This document shows, piece after piece, positions 63,621 through 63,710 of a stretch of DNA of 64,000 nt. Source of the stretch: Escherichia coli (GTDB lineage Bacteria; Pseudomonadota; Gammaproteobacteria; Enterobacterales; Enterobacteriaceae). Every line of letters starts with the position of its first letter. Position 1 is the first letter of the stretch. Below the pieces are notes generated by a model that searched no databases, was not told where the DNA came from, and worked only from the letters and a program-made list of their open reading frames with translations. The stretch lies in NCBI RefSeq assembly GCF_001677475.2, contig NZ_CP015229.1; one strand, 5' to 3'. Position numbers and translations under genes: made by a program.

Positions 63621-63710
63621 ATGAAAAACCGTGTTTATGAAAGTTTAACTACCGTGTTCAGCGTGCTGGTGGTCAGCAGCTTTCTTTATATCTGGTTTGC
63701 CACGTTCTGA
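63621..63710 (+). CDS. pmrR: small membrane protein PmrR
   Basis: 29-aa [32 protein letters not shown] with GGAGGAGAG RBS; overlaps basS 3-prime end convergently. Confidence 0.75.

Follow-up and report, generated by a model that had tools for sequence, protein, structure and literature searches.

The pmrR small-protein gene downstream of basS in Escherichia coli: a probably incidental coding overlap and a conserved hairpin at the Shine-Dalgarno sequence

The biochemistry of the small protein PmrR was reportedly first worked out in Salmonella, in the original paper of Kato et al. of 2012. For E. coli, genetic work in W3110 and WD101 has established that PmrR inhibits LpxT: when the PmrA box of the pmrR promoter was deleted in a pmrA-constitutive strain, polymyxin resistance was lost and deoxycholate resistance restored, and both phenotypes were reversed by deletion of lpxT (PMC8129183). 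In E. coli K-12, a start-site peak for pmrR has been detected by Ribo-RET and is induced 5-fold in low Mg2+, PmrR-6xHis has been located to the membrane fraction, and the growth defect of a pmrR deletion is rescued by the wild-type allele and not by an allele in which ATG is changed to TAA (PMC11429745). The same study reports that overexpression of PmrR in unstressed cells impairs growth and that the low-Mg2+ growth phenotypes of pmrR deletion and overexpression are independent of lpxT (PMC11429745); it follows that inhibition of LpxT may not be the whole function of PmrR, which may have a second target.

PmrR resembles MgrB, MgtS and SafA in being a short single-helix peptide that is induced by a two-component system and acts on a membrane protein (PMC11429745), but its target LpxT is an enzyme, whereas regulators of the type of MgrB, MgtS and SafA act on a sensor kinase or a transporter. 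PmrR is also the only one of the four whose gene lies tail-to-tail with, and overlaps, the kinase gene of its own regulator. A precedent of another kind, to which the leader of pmrR may be compared, is the fold-back inhibition of translation of the IS10/Tn10 transposase, which is said to have been described by Davis, Simons and Kleckner in Cell in 1985. The likeness would be that the transcription start of the gene itself is preceded by an anti-Shine-Dalgarno segment, so that only transcripts entering from outside would pair the Shine-Dalgarno (SD) sequence and stay untranslated; this is an analogy without homology, and one in which the start site of pmrR is a predicted one. Convergent excludons, finally, are convergent genes with overlapping transcripts, and pmrR-basS is among the 165 of them found by ExcludonFinder in at least 50% of E. 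coli RNA-seq samples (PMC12288877). Earlier publications thus already describe pmrR and its function, the translation of pmrR and the overlap with basS (pmrB), and the pair already stands in the excludon catalogue.

We have analyzed this locus in a stretch of E. coli DNA of 64,000 nucleotides, hereafter called the window, in which the two genes present the following coding features.

63608..63616, plus strand: Shine-Dalgarno sequence GGAGGAGAG, read from the sequence, with G52 and G53 invariant across species
63621..63710, plus strand: coding sequence of pmrR (29 aa, LpxT activity modulator), from the ORF, a profile match, the coding signature and RefSeq
63686..63710, both strands: dual-coding stretch, read as I/W-F-A-T-F plus stop in pmrR and as Q-N-V-A-N-Q-I plus stop in basS
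63686..64000, minus strand: 3' part of basS/pmrB (sensor histidine kinase), clipped by the end of the window

The initial annotation of this DNA had named a 29-aa hydrophobic ORF with a strong ribosome-binding site as pmrR, and all parts of this description have been borne out. The ORF list of the window contains the 29-codon frame with its ATG start, the length of which could by itself be due to chance, as the last 3 kb (61000..64000) contain 42 ORFs of 20 aa or more. Its residues 1-29 align with positions 1-29 of the 29 in the NCBIfam PmrR equivalog NF033224 at 72.7 bits (cutoff 30), residues 9-29 form a hydrophobic stretch of 21 residues, approximately the length of one membrane helix, and the AGGAG of the strong SD sequence ends 6 nt before the ATG. 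In a set of 26 distinct orthologues of 29 codons, drawn from Escherichia, Citrobacter, Salmonella and Intestinirhabdus, the variable sites fall on codon positions 1, 2 and 3 in numbers of 18, 7 and 25, respectively, and the ratio of synonymous to nonsynonymous changes is 2307:2265 (~1.0) in the annotated frame versus 0.02-0.61 in the other five frames. The annotation "LpxT activity modulator PmrR" is found in 5,408 of the 5,426 complete E. coli genomes. The ORF is therefore pmrR, a real gene that had been named correctly. Both a plus-strand transcript and its translation, the lack of which the initial annotation had stated as what would refute it, are on record in the form of the Ribo-RET peak, the tagged peptide in membranes and a mapped 3' end (discussed below); together with the complementation data, this published evidence removes the objection.

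The PmrR of the window shows no substantial difference from the known PmrR of Salmonella enterica and E. coli, with which it shares the length class, the hydrophobic helix, the PmrA-box promoter and the convergence on pmrB. It departs from PmrR of MG1655 (b4703) in one residue, Y29F, and the single nucleotide polymorphism responsible, at 63706 (T in the window, A in MG1655), alters both proteins, since it also changes Y to N in the DQ(Y/N)VANQI tail of PmrB. The allele of the window is common, 1,859 E. coli records, O157:H7 included, being 100% identical across 63660..63750. Over the region 60000..64000, the best identity among the 5,426 complete E. coli genomes is 98.9%, corresponding to about 1% divergence over 4 kb, which suggests either an Escherichia or Shigella lineage that is somewhat divergent or a segment acquired by recombination.

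Upstream of the ORF, the DNA contains the end of a co-directional gene followed by the elements of the pmrR promoter and leader.

62004..63506, plus strand: proP coding sequence, the co-directional upstream neighbour, named from RefSeq; the ORF ends at 63506 and its start is mapped from MG1655 with a 3-nt indel
63519..63547, no strand assigned: REP-like inverted repeat GGCCTGAT...ATCAGGCC, lying after proP and ahead of the pmrR promoter, read from the sequence
63560..63576, plus strand: PmrA (BasR) box CTTAAGgttcaCTTAAT, a perfect CTTAAK-N5-CTTAAK, 44 nt before the ATG
63587..63592, plus strand: predicted -10 hexamer CATACT, 10 bp past the PmrA box, placed by geometry
63590..63617, plus strand: 10-bp hairpin ACTCTCCTCC / GGAGGAGAGT, from fold energy, covariation and the Rfam consensus
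63599..63601, plus strand: predicted PmrA-dependent transcription start, placed by the geometry of box and -10 element, about where the 5' arm ends or the loop begins

The 3-nt indel (CAA) with respect to MG1655 is situated at 63547..63549, on the edge of the REP-like repeat, and a weak, sub-threshold match to the REP-derived Rfam family naRNA4 extends over 63487..63547. The PmrA box is the only perfect CTTAAK-N5-CTTAAK site in the whole 64-kb window; the box at the E. coli pmrR promoter has been used experimentally, with activation shown (PMC8129183). Within the predicted -10 hexamer, of the form nAnACT, the A at alignment column 29 and the T at column 33 do not vary among 66 distinct leaders. 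No mapped transcription start of pmrR was found in the literature searched.

The same arrangement recurs widely. We collected the 3' ends of pmrB from 80 species and searched the opposite strand downstream of them for a PmrR-like ORF; 71 of the 80 species, ranging from Escherichia to Pantoea, Erwinia and Tatumella, have such an ORF together with a PmrA box. In these 71 species pmrR follows pmrB directly and converges on it, as it does in the window, and the box, with 0-1 mismatch, lies 41-44 nt ahead of the ATG. The gene upstream of pmrR is co-directional with it in most genera; in the group of Escherichia, Citrobacter and Salmonella it is proP, and in Klebsiella, Kluyvera and their relatives it is uvrB. 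Neither box nor PmrR-like ORF was found downstream of pmrB in the remaining nine (survey loci L031, L041, L043, L048, L054, L061, L063, L072 and L079), and in at least four pmrR-less species (L031, L043, L048 and L054) it is the C-terminal end of uvrB that converges on pmrB. Judged from these sequence comparisons, the conserved unit consists of the PmrA box, a 10-bp spacing, the -10 element, the hairpin at the SD sequence, the ORF and the tail-to-tail placement with pmrB. Two side observations concern individual records of the survey. The PmrR-like ORFs of Pantoea (L045, L049-L052, L058-L060 and L077) are 39 aa long, with an N-terminal extension of about 14 residues. The record CACSKA010000002.1 (L075), titled 'Chryseobacterium sp. 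18061', contains a pmrB-pmrR-uvrB locus of enterobacterial type, almost identical to the one in 'Citrobacter sp. 18056' (L074), and is probably mislabelled or contaminated.

The initial annotation had further placed the end of pmrR 25 nt inside basS, and this is correct. The minus-strand stop codon of basS/pmrB lies at 63686..63688, and hence the two coding sequences share 63686..63710. In MG1655, RefSeq places pmrR at 4332116..4332205 and basS at 4332181..4333272, giving the identical overlap of 25 nt, which is seen likewise in the RefSeq genome of O157:H7; it has been stated as 25 bp by Xu et al. 2021 (PMC8004244) and drawn in Figure 7 of another 2021 paper (PMC8129183). The identity of the opposite gene is clear from the 104-aa fragment contained in the window, the best NCBIfam match of which is PmrB NF008025 (177.2 bits, profile positions 260-361 of 362).

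The extent of the overlap is variable. PmrB proteins are conserved through the motif ...GTRAWVxLKK and diverge beyond it: the Citrobacter protein ends with KKDQ*, whereas that of Escherichia continues as KKDQ(Y/N)VANQI*, which indicates that six further codons on a non-conserved tail give rise to the Escherichia overlap. As far as can be read from the alignment, the overlapped residues of PmrB are thus a lineage-specific extension that runs antisense to the final codons of pmrR. Among the 80-species set, coding overlaps between +57 and -44 nt are seen, negative values denoting a gap, with the following distribution.

Escherichia (five species): 25 nt
Citrobacter: 7 or 4 nt
Klebsiella/Raoultella: 22 or 4 nt
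Pseudocitrobacter: 57 nt
Trabulsiella: 0 nt
Salmonella enterica subsp. arizonae and diarizonae (the two subspecies sampled): -8 nt
most Kluyvera: -6 nt
Erwinia: -7 nt
Intestinirhabdus: -44 nt

The overlap of coding sequences therefore changes from genus to genus while the tail-to-tail adjacency is kept, a pattern differing from the conserved overlap that would be expected of a selected excludon. Being lineage-specific, the coding overlap is not to be read as a regulatory device, and the 25 nt shared in E. coli are probably incidental. Our overall reading, which we hold with considerable confidence, is that the ORF is the PmrA-activated gene pmrR, encoding the LpxT-inhibiting peptide, and that its overlap with basS is a by-product of gene packing.

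The leader of pmrR is more distinctive, for its SD sequence is enclosed in the hairpin listed above. The 5' arm ACTCTCCTCC (63590..63599) overlaps the predicted -10 element and the discriminator, and the 3' arm GGAGGAGAGT (63608..63617) is the SD sequence. The full leader folds with -20.1 kcal/mol (z = -5.9), whereas in RNA beginning at 63600 the SD sequence is unpaired and the energy is -2.4 kcal/mol. In the cross-species alignment, 87.3% of the cells of the hairpin are paired, compared with 41-54% when the partners are slid; compensatory change is seen in 6 of the 10 pairs, values matching those observed occur in 0 of 500 shuffles, and RNAalifold recovers six pairs of the hairpin. Two positions change from C-G to A-U between the Escherichia and Klebsiella groups, and the compensatory changes, since they follow clades, represent few independent events. 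The feature that characterizes the IS10 case, a stable helix that pairs the SD sequence with a segment upstream of it, is hence found in pmrR on the grounds of both energy and covariation. The window and Escherichia whittamii (L070) have identical pmrR leaders.

The distance between the PmrA box and the ATG would accommodate no more than a -10 element followed by a start near 63599-63601, and mRNA initiated through PmrA should therefore lack the 5' arm. Transcripts of this kind would begin inside the hairpin, with the SD sequence free and translatable, whereas RNA reading through from the co-directional gene upstream would contain both arms, sequester the SD sequence in a structure of -20 kcal/mol and end at the hairpin. 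A plus-strand 3' end has indeed been mapped at MG1655 4332117 and ascribed by the authors to termination of the upstream gene (PMC10687069); it corresponds to position 63622 of the window, 5 nt past the hairpin, and implies that upstream-derived transcripts exist. The harm done by overexpressed PmrR would supply a rationale for insulating the gene from them. We therefore put forward, tentatively and as a possibility that we rate somewhat short of probable, that the hairpin is an insulator embedded in the promoter, by which only PmrA-started transcripts have a free SD sequence and PmrR is made only when PmrA is active. In Pantoea the upstream neighbour is divergent and the hairpin weak, with -1.7 to -8 kcal/mol in most cases; this trend between hairpin strength and upstream orientation holds when the neighbours are identified by homology (the automatic ORF calls being noisy, with spurious antisense ORFs) and comes essentially from this one clade, so that the support it lends is weak.

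Other readings of the locus have to be weighed against this one. The same DNA yields a full-length match to an Rfam family typed as a small RNA:

63552..63717, plus strand: Rfam RF02052, STnc630, with 178.5 bits (gathering threshold 55) over model positions 1-166 of 166

and it could be argued from this match that the locus is the non-coding RNA STnc630 and its ORF fortuitous. We consider this highly improbable, given that the ORF has a frame-specific coding signature and an NCBIfam equivalog match and that a start peak, a tagged peptide in membranes and an ATG-requiring complementation have been published (PMC11429745). Moreover, a DNA element, the PmrA box, forms part of the Rfam model; the match covers this box, the leader and the entire pmrR ORF, and its consensus structure includes the SD hairpin. 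What Rfam types as an sRNA gene here comprises the promoter and leader of a small-protein gene along with its coding sequence, and STnc630 looks mis-typed, corresponding either to a small-protein mRNA or to the 3' region of the gene upstream; the literature searched yielded no paper discussing STnc630 or its hairpin. The chief alternative for the hairpin itself is that it serves the opposite strand, as a stabilizer or terminator at the 3' end of the eptA-basRS mRNA, and that its overlap with the SD sequence of pmrR is secondary. The minus-strand RNA is almost as stable (-18.9 kcal/mol, z = -4.9), as it is across species (mean -15.2 antisense versus -16.2 sense). Xu et al. 2021, by whom the region was treated mainly as the 3'UTR of pmrB, found with BL21-derived plasmids that both the colistin resistance conferred by pmrB and its mRNA level depend on the length of downstream sequence: constructs ending at +86 gave no resistance, at +103 partial and at +126 full resistance, with pmrB mRNA 315-fold lower in the +86 than in the +126 construct (PMC8004244). 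By our own coordinate mapping, +86 is position 63600, where one arm of the hairpin is lost, +103 is 63583, where the hairpin and the -10 element are kept and the box is lost, and +126 is 63560, where the whole box is kept, so that the loss of resistance at +86 and its partial return at +103 fit a role of the intact hairpin in the pmrB message. Yet the half-life of pmrB mRNA was alike in the +86 and +126 constructs (PMC8004244), the minus strand has no U-tract after the hairpin and yielded no terminator-like site, and the 3' end located 5 nt after the hairpin belongs to the plus strand (PMC10687069). Outside Pantoea, the core helix contains 33 G.U pairs in the sense orientation and 3 A.C combinations, which would be the wobbles of the antisense, an argument for the plus strand of moderate weight because the constraint on the SD sequence and transition bias contribute to it and the two strands differ by about 1 kcal/mol. 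The 3' arm, besides, is always the SD sequence and the 5' arm always begins in the -10 element, which ties the hairpin to pmrR. A primary role on the minus strand thus appears to us distinctly unlikely.

The remaining alternative concerns the transcripts and not the coding sequences. The initial annotation had deduced antisense coupling from the convergent overlap, and here its physical premise is sound, as the transcripts do overlap:

63711..63810, plus strand: 3' untranslated region of pmrR, antisense to the basS coding sequence, bounded by a mapped 3' end (PMC10687069)

and the inference of coupling is thereby supported only in part. The primary 3' end of pmrR has been mapped at MG1655 4332305, 100 nt beyond the stop codon (TRS supplement, PMC10687069), and because the window and MG1655 differ by zero indels from the PmrA box onward, this is position 63810, about 125 nt inside basS. 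Coupling of the excludon type would mean that convergent transcription of pmrR and eptA-basRS lowers one or both mRNAs, through polymerase collision or RNase III cleavage of duplex RNA, with pmrR transcription running about 125 nt into basS and that of eptA-basRS crossing pmrR; both promoters being activated by PmrA, it would act as a built-in limiter of BasS or PmrR when the system is on. Besides the overlapping coding sequences, the 3' end at about 63810 and the entry in the excludon catalogue (PMC12288877), this idea can draw on the tight tail-to-tail placement kept in 71 of the 80 species, on the absence of an intrinsic terminator-like site between pmrR and basS on both strands, and on the variation of pmrB mRNA with downstream sequence in plasmid constructs, which could reflect coupling in cis (PMC8004244). 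A terminator-like hairpin within the pmrR ORF (63664..63678; stem 63660..63681) was considered as a plus-strand terminator at the basS stop and discarded, its energy of -9.4 kcal/mol being that of chance (z = -0.2) and the mapped 3' ends lying at 63622 and 63810 instead; neither is there significant structure near the 3' end of pmrR (63760..63830, z = -1.0).

Several observations weigh on the other side. The excludon criterion is one of coverage alone, which any pair with overlapping coding sequences passes (PMC12288877), and the literature searched, the ExcludonFinder study included, yielded no functional test specific to pmrR-basS and no RNase III, dsRNA or interference data for the pair. 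The mutually exclusive expression that defines an excludon is not seen, since both units are activated by PmrA and iron-adapted E. coli induces pmrR together with eptA and basR (PMC13405929). Induction of arnT is 50-fold with and without the pmrR promoter, although the pmrA-constitutive background of that experiment bypasses PmrB (PMC8129183), and the level of pmrB mRNA was higher, not lower, in the plasmid constructs that retain the pmrR promoter (PMC8004244). The part of pmrB covered by the pmrR 3'UTR shows no synonymous-site constraint (0.46-0.55 versus a gene-wide mean of 0.47), variation being reduced only in the codons that directly face the pmrR ORF. Tight placement against pmrB makes an overlap of transcripts unavoidable; such an overlap could be selected even if the coding overlap is not, but a coupling of the two mRNAs seems to us unlikely, and we retain the interpretation of the coding overlap as a by-product of gene packing and, more tentatively, of the hairpin as an insulator of pmrR.

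In the mechanism that emerges from the published and present data, PmrA (BasR) would activate pmrR, and its product, a 29-residue peptide of the inner membrane with a single helix, would inhibit the lipid A 1-phosphotransferase LpxT and so favour modification with phosphoethanolamine; the outcome would be a gain in polymyxin resistance, with deoxycholate resistance as the cost. PmrR decides whether position 1 of lipid A receives a second phosphate, through LpxT, or phosphoethanolamine, through EptA, and because this choice trades polymyxin against bile-salt resistance, the control of PmrR bears on colistin resistance. If our reading of the hairpin is true, it would explain the strict dependence on its activator of a potentially toxic small protein encoded downstream of a co-directional gene, and it may help to explain the reported need for sequence downstream of pmrB in BL21-derived constructs conferring colistin resistance.
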